Assembly: GCA_951406725.2 (NCBI GenBank)
Contig: OX597825.1
Coordinates: 25,730,001-25,794,000 of the forward strand
DNA: 64,000 nucleotides
From: Octopus vulgaris
Lineage: Eukaryota
Direction: 5' to 3'
A program made the position numbers and the translations under genes. Below the pieces are notes generated by a model. The model was given only the letters and a program-made list of their open reading frames with translations. It did no database searches and was not told the origin of the DNA. This document shows, one piece after another, positions 8,101 through 51,757 of this stretch. Position 1 is the stretch's first letter; every line of letters starts with the position of its first letter.

Positions 8101-8452
8101 CAACATAAATTATAGTTTCACCTTTATAGTCTAGACTGGTGCCATTTGGACTTCTTCAGATTCATCACCGTTTCATTTAAATGAGGACGTAAGCATTGCT
8201 ACATTGCAATGACTCTCAATAGTTGTATTCCATATTTAGAAGCTGTGTCAGTCGACATTGACCAACGCTTTGCAAGTGTTTAGGCCTGAGCAAGATTTAT
8301 TGAGTATGATTGATAGTGATCTATATATATATATATATATATAAAAACTTTTTTAAAACTATTTCTAATACTTAAAGAAAATCTCTCTCATATAGTGTTT
8401 GCTCAATTCAACTCACGAAAGTATGGGGGTAAAGACATTAAAAAATCAAATG

Positions 8453-8527
8453 CAAAGGTTATTTGAGAACGTACGTTTCAAGATTAGTCAAACTCGACAT
8501 TTCTATCATCAGCTCAGAACTCCTTGG
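8453..8527 (-). ncRNA. Type I hammerhead ribozyme-like motif (inverted copy)
   Basis: Reverse complement of the motif at 8963-9037. Confidence 0.6.
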
Positions 8528-8962
8528 TTTGGATTTGAAAACACTGAAAGTGGGAGCATACCCTTTCGGCTTCTTATCGCTTCTGAAGATCTGCTCGAAA
8601 CTAACAGTGCCAGCACACCCAAAATATGCAAGCGAAGAATTTCTGCTCTCCCCTTTCCACCAGCGTGGGTTAAAATCAGTAAACACTATGCTTTTTCGGT
8701 AAATCCGAAACATTAAATAGAGAGAGATGAATTATAATTTCAACAATTGAGGGTAAAATTAATTAATTATTAATCAATGTTTCGGATTTACCGAAAAAGC
8801 ATAGTGTTTACTGATTTTAACCCACGCTGGTGGAAAGGGGAGAGCAGAAATTCTTCGCTTGCATATTTTGGGTGTGCTGGCACTGTTAGTTTCGAGCAGA
8901 TCTTCAGAAGCGATAAGAAGCCGAAAGGGTATGCTCCCACTTTCAGTGTTTTCAAATCCAAA

Positions 8963-9037
8963 CCAAGGAGTTCTGAGCTGATGATAGAAATGTCGAGTTT
9001 GACTAATCTTGAAACGTACGTTCTCAAATAACCTTTG
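8963..9037 (+). ncRNA. Type I hammerhead ribozyme-like motif
   Basis: UGAG-CUGAUGA(8978-8984)-stem II (AGA..GUCG/UGAC..UCU)-GAAA(9011-9014)-CGUACG-UU-CUCA; stem I UGAG/CUCA extended by AAGG/CCUU; predicted cleavage after 9022. Confidence 0.65.
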
Positions 9038-9526
9038 CATTTGATTTTTTAATGTCTTTACCCCCATACTTTCGTGAGTTGAATTGAGCAAACACTATAT
9101 GAGAGAGATTTTCTTTAAGTATTAGAAATAGTTTTAAAAAAGTTTTTTTAGCTACTATTTCTAATGAGTTCAGTATGTGGCAAAGTAATTTATTTTACTA
9201 AGCCCTTTTATATAATGTAATAATTTAAATTCGCCTTAAATGGTCCCTTTACATACTGAACACTTGGTGAAATTGATTAATAATTAATTAATTAATTTTA
9301 CCCTCAATTGTTGAAATTATAATTCATCTCTCTCTATTTAATGTTTCGGATTTACCGAAAAAGCATAGTGTTTACTGATTTTAACCCACGCTGGTGGAAA
9401 GGGGAGAGCAGAAATTCTTCGCTTGCATATTTTGGGTGTGCTGGCACTGTTAGTTTCGAGCAGATCTTCAGAAGCGATAAGAAGCCGAAAGGGTATGCTC
9501 CCACTTTCAGTGTTTTCAAATCCAAA

Positions 9527-9601
9527 CCAAGGAGTTCTGAGCTGATGATAGAAATGTCGAGTTTGACTAATCTTGAAACGTACGTTCTCAAATAACCTTT
9601 G
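9527..9601 (+). ncRNA. Type I hammerhead ribozyme-like motif (second tandem copy)
   Basis: CUGAUGA 9542-9548, GAAA 9575-9578; identical to 8963-9037. Confidence 0.65.
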
Positions 9602-9878
9602 CATTTGATTTTTTAATGTCTTTACCCCCATACTTTCGTGAGTTGGAATTGAGCAAACACTATATGAGAGAGATTTTCTTTAAGTATTAGAAATAGTTTT
9701 AAAAAAGTTTTTTTAGCTACTATTTCTAATGAGTTCAGTATGTGGCAAAGTAATTTATTTTACTAAGCCCTTTTATATAATGTAATAATTTAAATTCGCC
9801 TTAAATGGTCCCTTTACATACTGAACACTTAGTGAAATTGATTAATAATTAATTAATTAATTTTACCCTCAATTGTTG

Positions 9879-9920
<42 letters not shown>

Positions 9921-28037: not shown

Positions 28038-28762
28038 TACGAGGGAGAGTCAAAAATTATACACACTCTTGTTTTTTCAATGTATTTACACAAAAGCAGG
28101 GGATAAACAAGTTCGTCATTTTTCTATATAGTCACCTTCATTTTCGATGCATTTGGTCCAGCAGTCCACAAGCTAGCATATTCCCCCAAAGAAGAAGGTT
28201 TTGGGTTGGTCGTGCAACCATTTATGCACCGCCGCTTCCTTCATATCTTCATCCGTAGTAAATCGACGATCACATAAACAATCTTTGAGCGGTCCAAAGA
28301 TATGATAGTGGGAAGTGGAGAGATCAGAGCTGTAGGCAGGGTGTTTGTTCCAGCACCTCAAAACTCAAGTGGTTAATGGTTTCAACGATTTGGCTGGATG
28401 TGTGTGGGCGTGCATTGTTATGCAGCAACAAAAGTTTCTTCGACAATAGTGTTGGGCGTTTGGTGCGAATTGCTGGCTTCAGTTTATTGGCTAACAATGT
28501 ACTGTATCTTGTATTATTGTTCGTATACCCTTTTTCCAGAGAAATCGGATCACTGCTTTTTGTTCTACCTTGGCGTACATTGGTAGTGGAGCGGTCATGC
28601 TTACACTGTAAAACCAGAAAGAAAAATGGCGTGATCAGGCTCAAACTTCGATCCCGTGACCGGAATAGTACAAACTATAAGCACGCATGCGCAGAAGGCA
28701 GTGTGGGAATAATAAAGATATGTTATGGCGAAAGTACGGATAATTTTTGACTTTCCTTCGCA
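28038..28762 (-). mobile_element. Mariner element, internal-deletion derivative with both TIRs
   Basis: TIRs TACGAGGGAGAGTCAAAAATTAT / ATAATTTTTGACTTTCCTTCGCA; LLLHNNARPHTS and HPAYSSDLSTSHYHIFGPLK...RRFTTDEDMKEAAVHKWL (cf. HDNARPH and YSPDLAPSDYHLF), frameshifted. Confidence 0.9.
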
Positions 28763-36083: not shown

Positions 36084-36599
36084 CACATTTAATATCTTCC
36101 ATTTACCGTCTTAACGCAGACAGGTAGTAAAACTCCGGTAATGGAAGGTAAATAGATATCATATAGCACAGTTTTATTAAACCACATTTCAAATTATTAA
36201 ATTATGTATTTTTTCTATACTCTATATTACATACTTTATTAAATTATGGTATTTCATATTATAGTTAATTAGCTTATAATATATTAATGTATCTAAATTT
36301 GGACGTAAAATTATATGGACGATTTTAACGGGTGATGACAATCCATTCATAAAAAACACACACACTGCATACAAACTCATACACAAGTAACACTGTATAG
36401 AAGCACGCACAAACATTGTATACCCCCACACATCTATCTATATATATCTATCCATATACACAAGTGGCTGTGTGGTAAGAAGCTTGCTTCCCAACCACAT
36501 TGCCCCGAGTTCAGTCTCACTGTGTAGGAGTCGTGAATGTCTGCTGTTTTCTACAAGGTATAAGTTCTTGGTTGTATCAGAAAAAAGTGTCGTTTTTTA

Positions 36600-39410
36600 T
36601 TCACAGCTCCTACTCAACAGCATCATTAATAATTACACCAAAGCTTAGCCACAAATGTATAACGAAATTAAATTAGATAAAATAATAGAGGTTCTTCCAA
36701 TAAAAAGACACCTTTATAAGTATTAAAGAACATAAAAATAACTTCCTGTCTAATCCTAAATGTAGACTTATTAACCCAGCTAAATCAGAAATCTGTAGTA
36801 TTAGTTAGTGGAGGCGCAATGGCCCAGTGGTTAGGGCAGCGGACTCGCGGTCATAGGATCGCGGTTTCGATTCCCATACCGGGCGTTGTGAGTGTTTATT
36901 GAGCGAAAACACCTAAAGCTCCACGATGCTCCGGCAGGGGATGGTGGTGATCCCTGCTGTACTCTTTCACCACAACTTTCTCTCATTCTTACTTCCTGTT
37001 TCTGTTGTACCTGTATTTCAAAGGGCCGGCCTTGTCACTCTCTGTGTCACGCTGAATATCCCCGAGAACTACGTTAAGGGTACACGTGTCTGTGGAGTGC
37101 TCAGTCACTTACACGTTAATTTCACGGGCAGGCTGTTCTGTTGATTCGGATCAACCGGAACCCTTGTCGTCGTAACCGACGGAGTGCATCCATTAAGTAT
37201 TAGTTAAGAAACTTTAGGAAAAATCAATGCGAAAGTCAGAAATGCTACTAGGTTAGTAAAATGCTCCAATAGTATAGAAATCGTTGATTGGTTTAAATCC
37301 ATTAGGAATAAGAATAAATTGAGATATACACAATTCGATATTGTCGATTTCTATGCCTCTATCGCTAAGGAACTGCTAGATAAAGCGCTCACCTTCGCAA
37401 GCGAATTTATAGAAGTTTGTACACAAGATAAGGACATAGTCTTCCATGCTAGAAAGACGTTACTCTTCAGCGAGAACACAGAGTGGGTCAAGACTATCGA
37501 TGATACAGAGGGTGCTTTCGATGTGAGCATGGGGTCATATGATGGAGCAGGCATATGCGATCTCATTGGAGTATTCTTACTCGATGCGTTGGGCAATACT
37601 TTTCCTGACGTATATTTCGCCATTTACAAAGATGATACCCTGCCCTAGCTTTAACCACAAATACCAATGGACCAGCACAAGATCGGTGAAAATGATGAAA
37701 ACGTTTGGTTTTAGCATAATTACAGATACCAACCTGACGGTTGTCAATTTCTTGGATGTATCCTCAGATTTAAACAATAATATTTACAAGCCTTATAGGG
37801 ATTCCAACGATAGAATTAGTTATATAGGTTCCTCTCATCTCCCTATAGTGTTTAAAAATTTATTTAAAGACATTATCAAAAGAATTTCTTGCCTCCCCTC
37901 CGATAGGGACATTTTTAATAGTGTTGCCTCAGTATATAATAATTCTCTAAAAGATAGTGGATTTAGCGAGGAAATAACCTATACATATGTTACCAGTTCA
38001 ATAATAAAGAAAAAGAAACACAGGAATAGGAAAACTATCTGGTTCACAGCCCCTTATTCCACCGAAGTTACCTTTAATATAGGTTAAATATTTCTTAGCA
38101 CTTATAGATAGACATTTTCCAATTAATCATAGTTACAGAAAGCTCTTCAATAGACATAACTTAAAAATCAGTTTTAGGTCAACTACTAATTTTAAAAATA
38201 TAATCGCACACAATACACAAAAACAACAGAATGAAACCAGGTGTTCATGCAAGGATAAAAAATTGAGCCCGCTAAATAGAGCTTGCATGAGCGAGACCAT
38301 CATTTATGAAGCCACCGTAGACTCAACAACCACTAAGGACATAGTTTCGTCAAGGTAATATGTGGGTCTCTCAGAGGGGAACTTTAAAGCCAGGTTCAGC
38401 AATCACTCCTTGAGCTTCAGACACTGGGATAAAAGAAAAACAATCAAATTATCCAGTGATATATAGTGCTTAAAAGAAAAAGGTGTTAATTACAACATCC
38501 ATTGGGAGATCTTAGCCAAGTGTAAGCCTTACACCGACGGCATTGGAAAGTGCAGTCTTTGTGAAATGGAAAGATGGCTCATCTGGAAAAGCAGCTTAGA
38601 CCCCGCTACATGTCTAAATTCAAGAACTGAACTTTTTGGGTCATGTCCGCATATTGCTAAATATTTGTTACGTTTTTGATTCCCCCAAAGACCACAGATA
38701 GAACCTGAATTTTATTTTGTGTCCACTTACAAGCATTTTATCTTTATATATTTTGTATATATACTTTTTACATATTTTTATATCTATTTTTACATATTTT
38801 TTCTGTATATTACATTTCACCCTGCATTTTTCTTGTGCATGTGCATATATAGATGTGTATATGAACATATTTGTGCGCACATGGGCATAAATACGTGTGT
38901 GTGTGTATGTGCGTTTGTGCGAGTATGTATATGTTTACATGTGTATGGTTGCGTATATATGTGGATGTACATGCATGTGTTTCACGCGAGTGTGAGTGAG
39001 CATATGCATACATAGCATGTGCATTTTCTCCTAACGCGAGAAAATTCATTCTTGCCTGTGGAACCTACCATGTTTATAGAAACACGAGTTTCTGCCGCTC
39101 TAGGTCTCTGGATAAGCCGCCATTGTCCAGACACCAGCCAGGTTCACAGCCTTCTTCAACCAATCGTCGCCCGTTTACTTCCTTGCAGCAACAGACTGCC
39201 GACCACAGCCACGCCATCAGATCCAGCAGAAGTGAAGTCATTTGAATCTTTGTTGCTGACTGTAGTATGAACATCATTCCTTTTGGCAATCTTCTATTAT
39301 AAATATTATTATATTATAAATTAATATAAGAGGAATAAATCGTCGCTTTTTCAACATTCAAATCTTATTGTTCTTTTTTCAACACCATGTCATTATAATT
39401 AGTGACCTAC
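36600..39410 (+). mobile_element. Penelope-like retroelement (Naiad-type RT plus C-terminal GIY-YIG), pseudogenised
   Basis: KEHKNNFLSNPKCRLINPAKSEI; QFDIVDFYASI; FDVSMGSYDGAGICDLIG; IYKDD; VNFLDV; IWFTAPYS; GIY-YIG region IIYEA...YVGLSEGNFKARFSNH...CSLCEME...LNSRTELFGSCPH; many stops/frameshifts; coding ends ~38680; 3' boundary approximate. Confidence 0.88.
36808..37195 (+). mobile_element. SINE family C inserted in the Penelope RT, with 11-bp TSD
   Basis: TSD AGTATTAGTTA at 36797-36807 and 37196-37206. Confidence 0.92.
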
Positions 39411-42806: not shown

Positions 42807-43180
42807 AGGTGCCGGCGTGGCTGTGCAGTAAGAAGCTTGCTTCCCAAATACAAGGTTCCGGGTTCAGGATCTTCTACTTTAGCCTCGGTCCGGCCAAATC
42901 CTTGTGAGTGGATTTGGTAGAAAGAAGCTCAACGGATATATATATATATATTTGTGTCTGTATGTTTATATTTATATGTATATATGTATTTGTGTCCTCT
43001 CCACCGCTTGACAATCGGTGTTGGTATGTTTATATCCACGTAATTTAGCAATTCGGCAAAAAGAGCGATAGAATAAGTACTAGACTTACAAAGAATATAA
43101 ATCCTGGTGACGATTTGATCGACTGAATGTATTGCTCCAGCATAGCCGTAGTCAGATGACTGAAACAAGTAAAAGAAGTA
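42807..43180 (+). mobile_element. SINE family A; its 3' ~140 bp is duplicated at 43988-44125
   Basis: Family A head and tail; 43041-43180 recurs at 43988-44125 with one substitution and one 1-nt indel. Confidence 0.85.
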
Positions 43181-43202
43181 TATATAGAAGTATATAAAAG
43201 AA

Positions 43203-43243
<41 letters not shown>

Positions 43244-43333
43244 TTTGTTGGCACTGTTAGTTACGAGCAGATCTTCGAAAGCGATGAGAAGCCGAAAGGG
43301 TATGCTCTCACTTTCAGTGTTTTCAAATCCAAA

Positions 43334-43408
43334 CCAAGGAGTTTCTGAGCTGATGATAGAAGTGTCGTGTTGACTAATCTTGAAACGTACGTTCTCAAAT
43401 AACCTTTG
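43334..43408 (+). ncRNA. Type I hammerhead ribozyme-like motif
   Basis: CUGAUGA 43350-43356, GAAA 43382-43385, then CGUACGUU-CUCA; core identical to locus 1, with differences only in the stem II region and distal stem I. Confidence 0.65.
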
Positions 43409-43891
43409 CATTTGATTTTTTGATGTCTTTACCCCCAAACTTTCGTGAGTTGAGTTGAGCAAGCACTATATGAGAGAGGTTTTCTTTAAGTATTAGAAAT
43501 AGTTTTAAAAGTTTTTTAGCTGCTATTTCTAATGAGTTCAGTATGCGGCAAAGTAATTTATTTTACTAAGCCCTTTTATATAATGTAATAATTTGAATTC
43601 GCCTTAAATGTTCCCTTTGCATACTGAACACTTGGTGAAATTGATTAATAATTAATTAATTTTACCCTCAATTGTTGAAATTATAATTAATCTCCCTCTA
43701 ATTAATGCTTCGGATTTTACCGAAATAAGTATAGTGTTTGCTGATTTTAACCCACGCTGGTGGAAAGGGGAGAACAGAAATTCTTCGCTTGCATATTTGA
43801 GTTTGTTGGCACTGTTAGTTACGAGCAGATCTTCGAAAGCGATGAGAAGCCGAAAGGGTATGCTCTCACTTTCAATGTTTTCAAATCCAAA

Positions 43892-43966
43892 CCAAGGAGT
43901 TTCTGAGCTGATGATAGAAGTATCGTGTTGACTAATCTTGAAACGTACGTTCTCAAATAACCTTTG
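43892..43966 (+). ncRNA. Type I hammerhead ribozyme-like motif
   Basis: CUGAUGA 43908-43914, GAAA 43940-43943; one G>A change weakens stem II. Confidence 0.55.
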
Positions 43967-44123
43967 CATTTGATTTTTTGATGTCTTTAATTTAGCAATT
44001 CGGCAAAAAGAGCGATAGAATAAGTACTAGACTTACAAAGAATATAAATCCTGGTGACGATTTGATCGACTGAATGTATTGCTACAGCATAGCCGTAGTC
44101 AGATGACTGAAACAAGTAAAGAA

Positions 44124-44163
<40 letters not shown>

Positions 44164-51179: not shown

Positions 51180-51757
51180 AAGGCGGCGAGCTGGCAGAGA
51201 CAGTAGCCCGCCGGGAAAAATGGTTAGCAGTATTTCGTCTGCCGCTACGTTCTGAGTTCAAATTCCGCCGAGGTCGACTTTGCCTTTCATCCTTTCGCGG
51301 TCGATTAAATAAGTACATGTTACGCACATGGGTCGATATAATCGACTTAATCCGTTTGTGTGTCCTTGTTTGTCCCCTCTGTGTTTAGCCCCTTGTGGGT
51401 AGTAAAGAAATAGGTATTTCGTCTGCCGGTACGTTCTGAGTTCAAATTCCGCCGAGGTCGATTTTGCCTTTCATCATTTCGCAGTCGATTAAATAATTAC
51501 CAGTTATGCACTTGGGTCGATATAATAGACTTAATCCGTTTGTGTGTCCTTGTCTGTCCCCTCTGTGTTTAGCCTCTTGTGGGTAGTAAAGAAATAGGTA
51601 TTCCTAAGTTCAAATTCCGCCGAGGTTGACTTTGCCTTTCATCCATTCGGGGTCGATAAATTAAGAACCAGTTACGCACTGGGGTCGATGTAATCGACTT
51701 AATCCCTTTGTTTGTCTCCTCTATGTTTATCCCCTAGTGGGCAATAAAGAAATAAGA
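51180..51757 (+). mobile_element. SINE family B concatemer: one head plus three ~184-bp bodies
   Basis: Body restarts (GTATT) at 51230, 51414 and 51598 after the tail AAAGAAATAG. Confidence 0.88.

Follow-up and report, generated by a model that had tools for sequence, protein, structure and literature searches.

The two insertions

The window (the whole 64-kb stretch of DNA that was analysed) contains two recent insertions of one non-coding repeat of about 560 bp, and no further unit copies were found in the 64 kb besides these two loci. Locus 2 (43240..43989, + strand), delimited by BLAST and pairwise alignment, consists of 1.34 head-to-tail units of a 558-bp repeat, that is, 750 bp made up of one 558-bp unit and 192 bp. 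Pairwise alignment of the repeated 192 bp gave 190/192 equal bases between the copies. The insertion lies in the tail of a host SINE, starts with GAGTTTGTTGGC at 43241 (the T at 43240 is common with the TA tract) and closes with GTCTTTA at 43989. An earlier note had described locus 2 as shifted in phase, and its coordinates, terminal motifs and length were found as claimed.

Locus 1 is composed of two segments. The forward run (8776..9882, +) is 1107 bp long (1.96 units of 564 bp), carries two hammerheads and terminates in an AT tract. The inverted arm (8343..8778, -) represents 0.77 unit with one hammerhead, terminates in a TA tract and abuts the forward run head-to-head via a 3-base overlap. 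The unit copies of the forward run are equal at 545/546 aligned bases, and the inverted arm matches 9272-9712 at 436/436 aligned bases with 5 gap positions. A 4-base indel sets the arm apart from both forward copies, which was counted against a circular monomer as the template. A target duplication is not discernible at this locus, where TA tracts lie on both sides.

The GC content of the unit is 0.33-0.34, and the units abut directly with no LTR arrangement. Only three frames of at least 110 codons were found over the loci, all of them antisense and stop-to-stop (113-178 codons). The RT/GIY-YIG ORF that an autonomous Penelope-like element would have is absent between the hammerheads (558-564 bp apart), and ARAGORN reported 0 genes.

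Hammerhead ribozymes

The first type I hammerhead of locus 2 is located at 43346..43397 (+), with its core from 43350 and a predicted cut after 43393. The second (43904..43955, +) has a predicted cut after 43951 and differs from the first by one G-to-A in the helix II hairpin. At locus 1, hammerheads are found at 8978 and 9542 (+) and at 8512 (-), and the predicted cuts of the forward run fall after 9022 and 9586. The claim that each plus-strand run contains two hammerheads thus agrees with the motifs at 8978 and 9542 (locus 1) and at 43350 and 43908 (locus 2). The further claim that each locus retains the minimum needed to regenerate a monomer did not go beyond chance: two whole ribozymes are expected at random phase with a probability of 0.20-0.25 for 750 bp and 0.82-0.87 for 1107 bp. 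The inverted arm, with only one ribozyme, was also counted against it, as was the fact that both loci came to notice through being tandem.

By hammerhead numbering and core rules, helix I of the ribozyme has 4 bp, helix II is weak and carries a U.U at its base, and helix III comprises 2 bp closed by a palindromic loop; the cut triplet is GUU, and the core is equal in 5/5 copies. This architecture is described in PMC4209133. The GUU triplet and the weak helix II were counted against reading the unit as a retrozyme circle.

When the exact hammerhead pattern was applied to the window, it occurred five times (one per unit), compared with a mean of 0 in 100 shuffles of the window. In the window, a general type I descriptor picked out these five sites only, and it matched 1 of 20,000 shuffled units. 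Rfam gave 0 matches on the window at gathering scores and, at E up to 5, 10 weak matches of which none was a hammerhead; the identity of the ribozyme therefore rests on the motif (core and helices). Searches for the exact motif in metagenome contigs and in prokaryote-genome contigs gave 0 matches in either set. A looser pattern matched one metagenome and seven viral loci, and these were dropped as 0/8 resemble the unit beyond the motif. A motif like a type I hammerhead, unrelated but sharing the palindromic helix III, is present in a single copy and not in tandem at 1306-1358 of the metagenome contig L001.

The lone helix III hairpin is predicted to be unfavourable (+2.4 kcal/mol), and the duplex formed by the 10-nt palindrome has a predicted energy of -11.6 kcal/mol. 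In folded transcripts of both loci, the palindromes of adjacent copies pair at a probability of 0.84-1.0 per pair, and holding the circle in the single-hammerhead fold carries a predicted cost of 7.6 kcal/mol. These values fit a ribozyme that cuts in multimers and is shut in the monomer circle, as proposed for such ribozymes in PMC4209133. The complete active fold is not the minimum-energy fold of the transcripts.

Fold of the predicted monomer

The two predicted cuts at locus 2 would free a 558-nt monomer (43394..43951, +), a candidate circular RNA according to fold prediction. Its circular MFE is -144.9 kcal/mol (z -5.7 against 40 shuffles). The z values for the monomers of the two loci are -5.3 and -5.7 (40 shuffles each), and the minus-strand circles fold about as well (z -6.3 and -4.5). 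A consensus fold of the two sequences contained 2 double changes among 166 pairs, too few to weigh. Variants of the family keep the predicted structure no better than chance, with 13 broken compared with 15.3 expected (P=0.24; 40 of 56 variant sites). In one circular fold, 43394-43401 pairs with 43794-43801, so that the 3' strand of helix I is occupied and the ribozyme would be blocked; this pairing is absent from another circle fold.

Probable target-site duplication at locus 2

Locus 2 is flanked by two copies of the same host sequence, a feature that the earlier note does not mention. The left copy (43041..43240, +) consists of the 3' part of the host SINE and the TA tract, with about 24 extra tail-repeat bases, and the right copy (43988..44162, +) of about 175 bp is equal to it at 132/134 positions. 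The left copy shares 74-82 % identity with four other SINE copies in the window, compared with 132/134 aligned SINE bases for the right copy, and all of its private changes (15/15) are common to the right copy. Thus, the duplication is local, and an independent insertion of the right-hand SINE piece was ruled out. A plain tandem duplication of locus 2 was ruled out as well, since the order is A-B-C-B-A and not A-B-A-B. The duplicated SINE sequence is best read, from its arrangement, as a long target-site duplication (TSD) of about 175 bp that would have arisen from staggered nicks. Between the two SINE copies there is 1 internal substitution in about 175, a divergence close to that of the unit copies (2 in 192) and in keeping with a single event. 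The extra repeated SINE-tail bases of the left copy (43170-43240, about 24), absent from the right copy, possibly reflect slippage during insertion or repair.

Ends and identities of the segments

The ends of the three segments were numbered from the predicted cut site, the RNA-3' end being the point where reverse transcription would begin. The RNA-3' ends lie at +38 (locus 2), about +125 (inverted arm) and +295 (forward run), and the RNA-5' ends of the three segments at +250, +318 and about +405. The absence of a common terminus, which the earlier note had asserted, was thus borne out: no end is common to the three segments, none (0/3) ends at the cut site and all (3/3) read through it. Read-through in every segment and the lack of any end at this predicted site exclude a linear monomer copied only once as the template. 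The RNA-3' ends span about 257 nt, a figure from three ends, two of them from one locus, in which later deletion is possible; the phase sample as a whole comprises two loci and three segments, two of the segments belonging to locus 1. At each of the three 3' junctions, 1-2 bases are common to the element and the AT-rich target, and 3 at the inversion junction. A 30-40-bp tail pattern was not evident in the three segments.

The cut-to-cut monomers of locus 1 and locus 2 are equal at 526/555 bases (94.8 %), compared with 99-100 % among copies within a locus. Copies are therefore closer within loci (545/546, 436/436 and 190/192) than between them (526/555), as the earlier note had it, and its proposal of a separate template variant for each locus is supported by the same values (94.8 % between, 99-100 % within). 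High identity within a locus follows from a circle, from a linear multimer or from any local duplication, and so does not tell a circle from a linear multimer here.

The family beyond the window

Sequence words of locus 2 were present in 20/24 listed sequencing runs (10 studies, 3 organism labels). The listed runs are contigs, none on record as RNA (for one, an RNA origin is a guess), and the best run may be the window's own sample. In four runs, 4505, 843, 1756 and 196 contigs matched one unit; these counts and the depth are not copy numbers, and depth follows sequence variation. Depth over the unit covered 30/30 bins in the four runs, and the fraction of contigs that are less than 95 % alike runs from about a quarter to over a third. 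The head-to-tail (end-to-start) joint was found in 4/4 runs. Joints to the opposite strand at other phases were found in two runs (one contig each), and one of them may reflect an internal hairpin. Contigs continuing into unlike sequence made up shares of 0, 0, 0 and 0.03, and a pile-up of molecule starts or ends on the unit was not listed for the contigs of the four runs; both results are to be read with the fact that contigs break at branch points. Among 24 of the 249 loose ends, about 21 appeared by eye to be variant element sequence and three were ambiguous. The unit is thus a heterogeneous, many-copy, tandem family in the four runs, with no sign of a dominant fixed end. Depth dips were seen in 4/4 runs at two hairpin regions (43832-43857 and 43699-43736), and the loose ends suggest variants with a deletion near 43840-43856.

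These data bear on a very unlikely alternative, in which the loci derive from a fixed-end linear element, for example the pseudo-LTR of an autonomous Penelope-like element, and were trimmed after insertion. It draws on the relationship of Xenopus retrozymes to pseudo-LTRs stated in bioRxiv 10.64898/2026.07.22.740005 and on partial tandems and inverted copies being normal for Penelope-like elements according to PMC8557442. Sequence may have been deleted across the right-hand junction of locus 2, which would also suit it. It requires separate deletions at the 3' ends, however, and the end of the unit is joined straight to its start without an intervening ORF. The lack of any listed pile-up of ends and the few contigs that continue into unlike sequence (0, 0, 0, 0.03) speak against it too, weakly in view of the breaks at branch points.

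The variation within the family also touches on spread at the DNA level, either by extrachromosomal DNA circles that reintegrate or as an ordinary satellite, with the hammerhead as a passenger. Such DNA circles would likewise give random phase and short overlaps, the route is mentioned for Schistosoma repeats in PMC8490949, and no structure-preserving variation was detected at 40 of the 56 variant sites. However, the long TSD, the TA targeting and the head-to-head 5' inversion fit target-primed reverse transcription, which counts against DNA-level spread. The equality of the hammerhead core in 5/5 copies points the same way, as do the few changes in the core region (only position 7 and the helix II base among 40 of 56 variant sites), which are weak evidence alone. 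We consider spread at the DNA level improbable.

Relationship to known elements

The ~560-bp unit is best read as a non-autonomous, non-LTR retrozyme, an assignment from sequence in agreement with every sequence-level feature tested. The features of non-LTR retrozymes found here are tandem type I hammerheads, a non-coding unit, GC below 50 %, no LTR, a TSD of more than 4 bp, a stable predicted circle and multiple copies. Metazoan non-LTR retrozymes, as described in PMC7229834 and bioRxiv 10.64898/2026.07.22.740005, resemble the unit in being tandem and non-coding with a type I hammerhead, GC below 50 %, no LTR, a self-paired predicted circle and a TSD of more than 4 bp. The description of the axolotl HHR_Amex2 is also like the ribozyme of the unit (2-bp helix III with a tetraloop, U.U at the helix II base). 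The unit length of 558-564 bp exceeds the 150-450 bp given in PMC7229834 but falls within the 51-972 bp given in bioRxiv 10.64898/2026.07.22.740005. Unlike metazoan retrozymes, the present loci are 1.3- and 2-mers with one inverted arm and a TSD of about 175 bp.

Penelope-like elements and pseudo-LTR hammerheads (PMC8557442, PMC4209133, PMC11167929) are described with partial tandems, an inverted 5' copy, TA tracts and a palindromic helix III suited to dimer cleavage, all of which are like the present loci. Locus 1 shows the inverted 5'-truncated copy and TA-tract targets that PMC8557442 describes for Penelope-like elements. In contrast to these elements, the unit contains no RT/endonuclease ORF, and its 3' ends (n=3) do not lie at two nearby sites as described for the Anolis element.

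Newt satellite 2 and Schistosoma SM-alpha (PMC7229834, PMC6765202, PMC8490949), which were compared by description only, are like the unit in that they occur both dispersed and in tandem and carry a type I hammerhead, and the newt satellite 2 ribozymes are described as having a weak helix III and cleaving as dimers. The units of these repeats measure about 330-335 bp compared with about 560 here.

The family is a further instance of the known animal retrozyme class. The origin that the earlier note proposed, reverse transcription around a circular or multimeric RNA, corresponds to the retrozyme model already published in PMC7229834 and PMC7761336, and circles have been demonstrated for coral, mussel and axolotl retrozymes (PMC7229834). 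A literature search of listings and the openings of abstracts, with most subscription journals outside it, turned up no paper on the family of this unit and none on how the ends of retrozyme insertions are distributed over phases.

Proposed mechanism of insertion

An RNA-templated origin is supported by the Penelope-type inverted arm, the TSD, the TA tracts, the variable ends and the read-through of the cut site. This part of the earlier proposal therefore stands, and its alternatives of a circle and a linear multimer are indistinguishable here. As the agent, we favour, at about an even chance, reverse transcription of a circular monomer by Penelope-like machinery, a reading drawn from the sequence features above. 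A transcript spanning two units would fold such that the palindromic helix III segments of two hammerheads pair, as the fold models predict. The double hammerhead would cut out a monomer, whose ligation would yield a circle, and the circle, with its single hammerhead, would resist recutting. The transcription and cleavage of the unit are, like the ligation, steps that we infer. A Penelope-like RT/GIY-YIG protein, presumably acting in trans as the mobilising protein, would nick AT-rich DNA, and priming would then probably occur on the circle at almost any phase via 1-2 matching bases. Copying would pass the ligation site and complete 1.3 to 2 turns. At locus 2, a second nick, placed in the TA tract some 175 bp beyond the first, would produce the long target duplication. 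At locus 1, either extension of both target ends or fold-back of the cDNA would give the head-to-head inverted arm, and both fit. Priming from both target ends is called twin priming. The 64-kb window yielded no mobilising element with sequence in common with the unit, which was counted against this reading.

The more specific proposal, direct reverse transcription from a closed ~560-nt RNA circle with any start phase, TSDs well over 100 bp and extension of both target ends, is tentative, and we place it somewhat below an even chance; its free choice of phase would contrast with the fixed internal start sites of the only such protein assayed in vitro. The Penelope-like protein of Anolis was observed to extend both target strands in vitro (PMC11167929). 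The finding in bioRxiv 10.64898/2026.07.22.740005 that 8/9 predicted Xenopus dimers did not cleave in vitro was counted against a circle.

Alternatively, and in our view rather unlikely though the main rival, the same element and machinery used as template a linear multimer that was transcribed from a homogeneous array of parent units and left uncut, with internal priming and 5' truncation but no circle. Variable ends, read-through at the cut site and identity within a locus would be expected of a linear multimer too, and the 4-base indel of the inverted arm could derive from another unit of the array. In vitro, the Anolis protein began at fixed internal start sites and used uncut RNA as its main substrate (PMC11167929), which favours a linear multimer, and ribozyme mutants of the Anolis element were still inserted (PMC11167929). 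The start at fixed sites and not at many also counts against this template for the present loci. Moreover, daughters of a linear multimer would never be longer than their parents, such that arrays would wear down without regeneration. Copies across the family are heterogeneous but uniform within a locus, which a circle explains directly.

In PMC7229834, the step from circle to inserted tandem cDNA is presented as a hypothesis, and the 2026 preprint (bioRxiv 10.64898/2026.07.22.740005) states that the mechanisms remain to be elucidated. Should the proposal of direct copying from the closed circle at any phase hold, the genome would preserve, in the many young insertions, a record of rolling-circle reverse transcription, which is the step of the animal retrozyme model that has yet to be tested. 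As the family is young and high in copy number, with short insertions and readable junctions, the insertion step can be tested from a genome assembly alone.

Other features of the window

A degraded Penelope-like ORF with stops and frameshifts was observed at 36560-38680 (+), with an RT followed by a C-terminal endonuclease-like region. By eye, a CxC linker is present in it, and the conserved E and N are surrounded by CxxC and CxH motifs. Its Atlas matches (0.90-0.93) include RT-named clusters, and nothing significant was found for it in Pfam and PDB. The CxC linker and CxxC/CxH motifs are described in PMC8557442 for a TA-targeting, hammerhead-bearing Hydra clade, and a link between retrozymes and Penelope-like elements is put forward in bioRxiv 10.64898/2026.07.22.740005. 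As the ORF has no sequence in common with the unit, it was considered a candidate for the class of mobiliser only. The ORF is interrupted at about 36810-37190 (+) by a ~380-bp insertion with a tRNA-like head, judged by eye to be probably a second SINE family; ARAGORN found no tRNA in it. The host SINE and the microsatellites suggest that the DNA comes from an octopus.

A frame at 28327-28674 (-) resembles by eye what we take to be a mariner-type transposase fragment and has no Pfam match. Apart from the two loci, the general type I descriptor found no hammerhead in a further tandem repeat at 51230-51716, which consists of 2.7 copies of a 184-bp unit that are 85 % alike.
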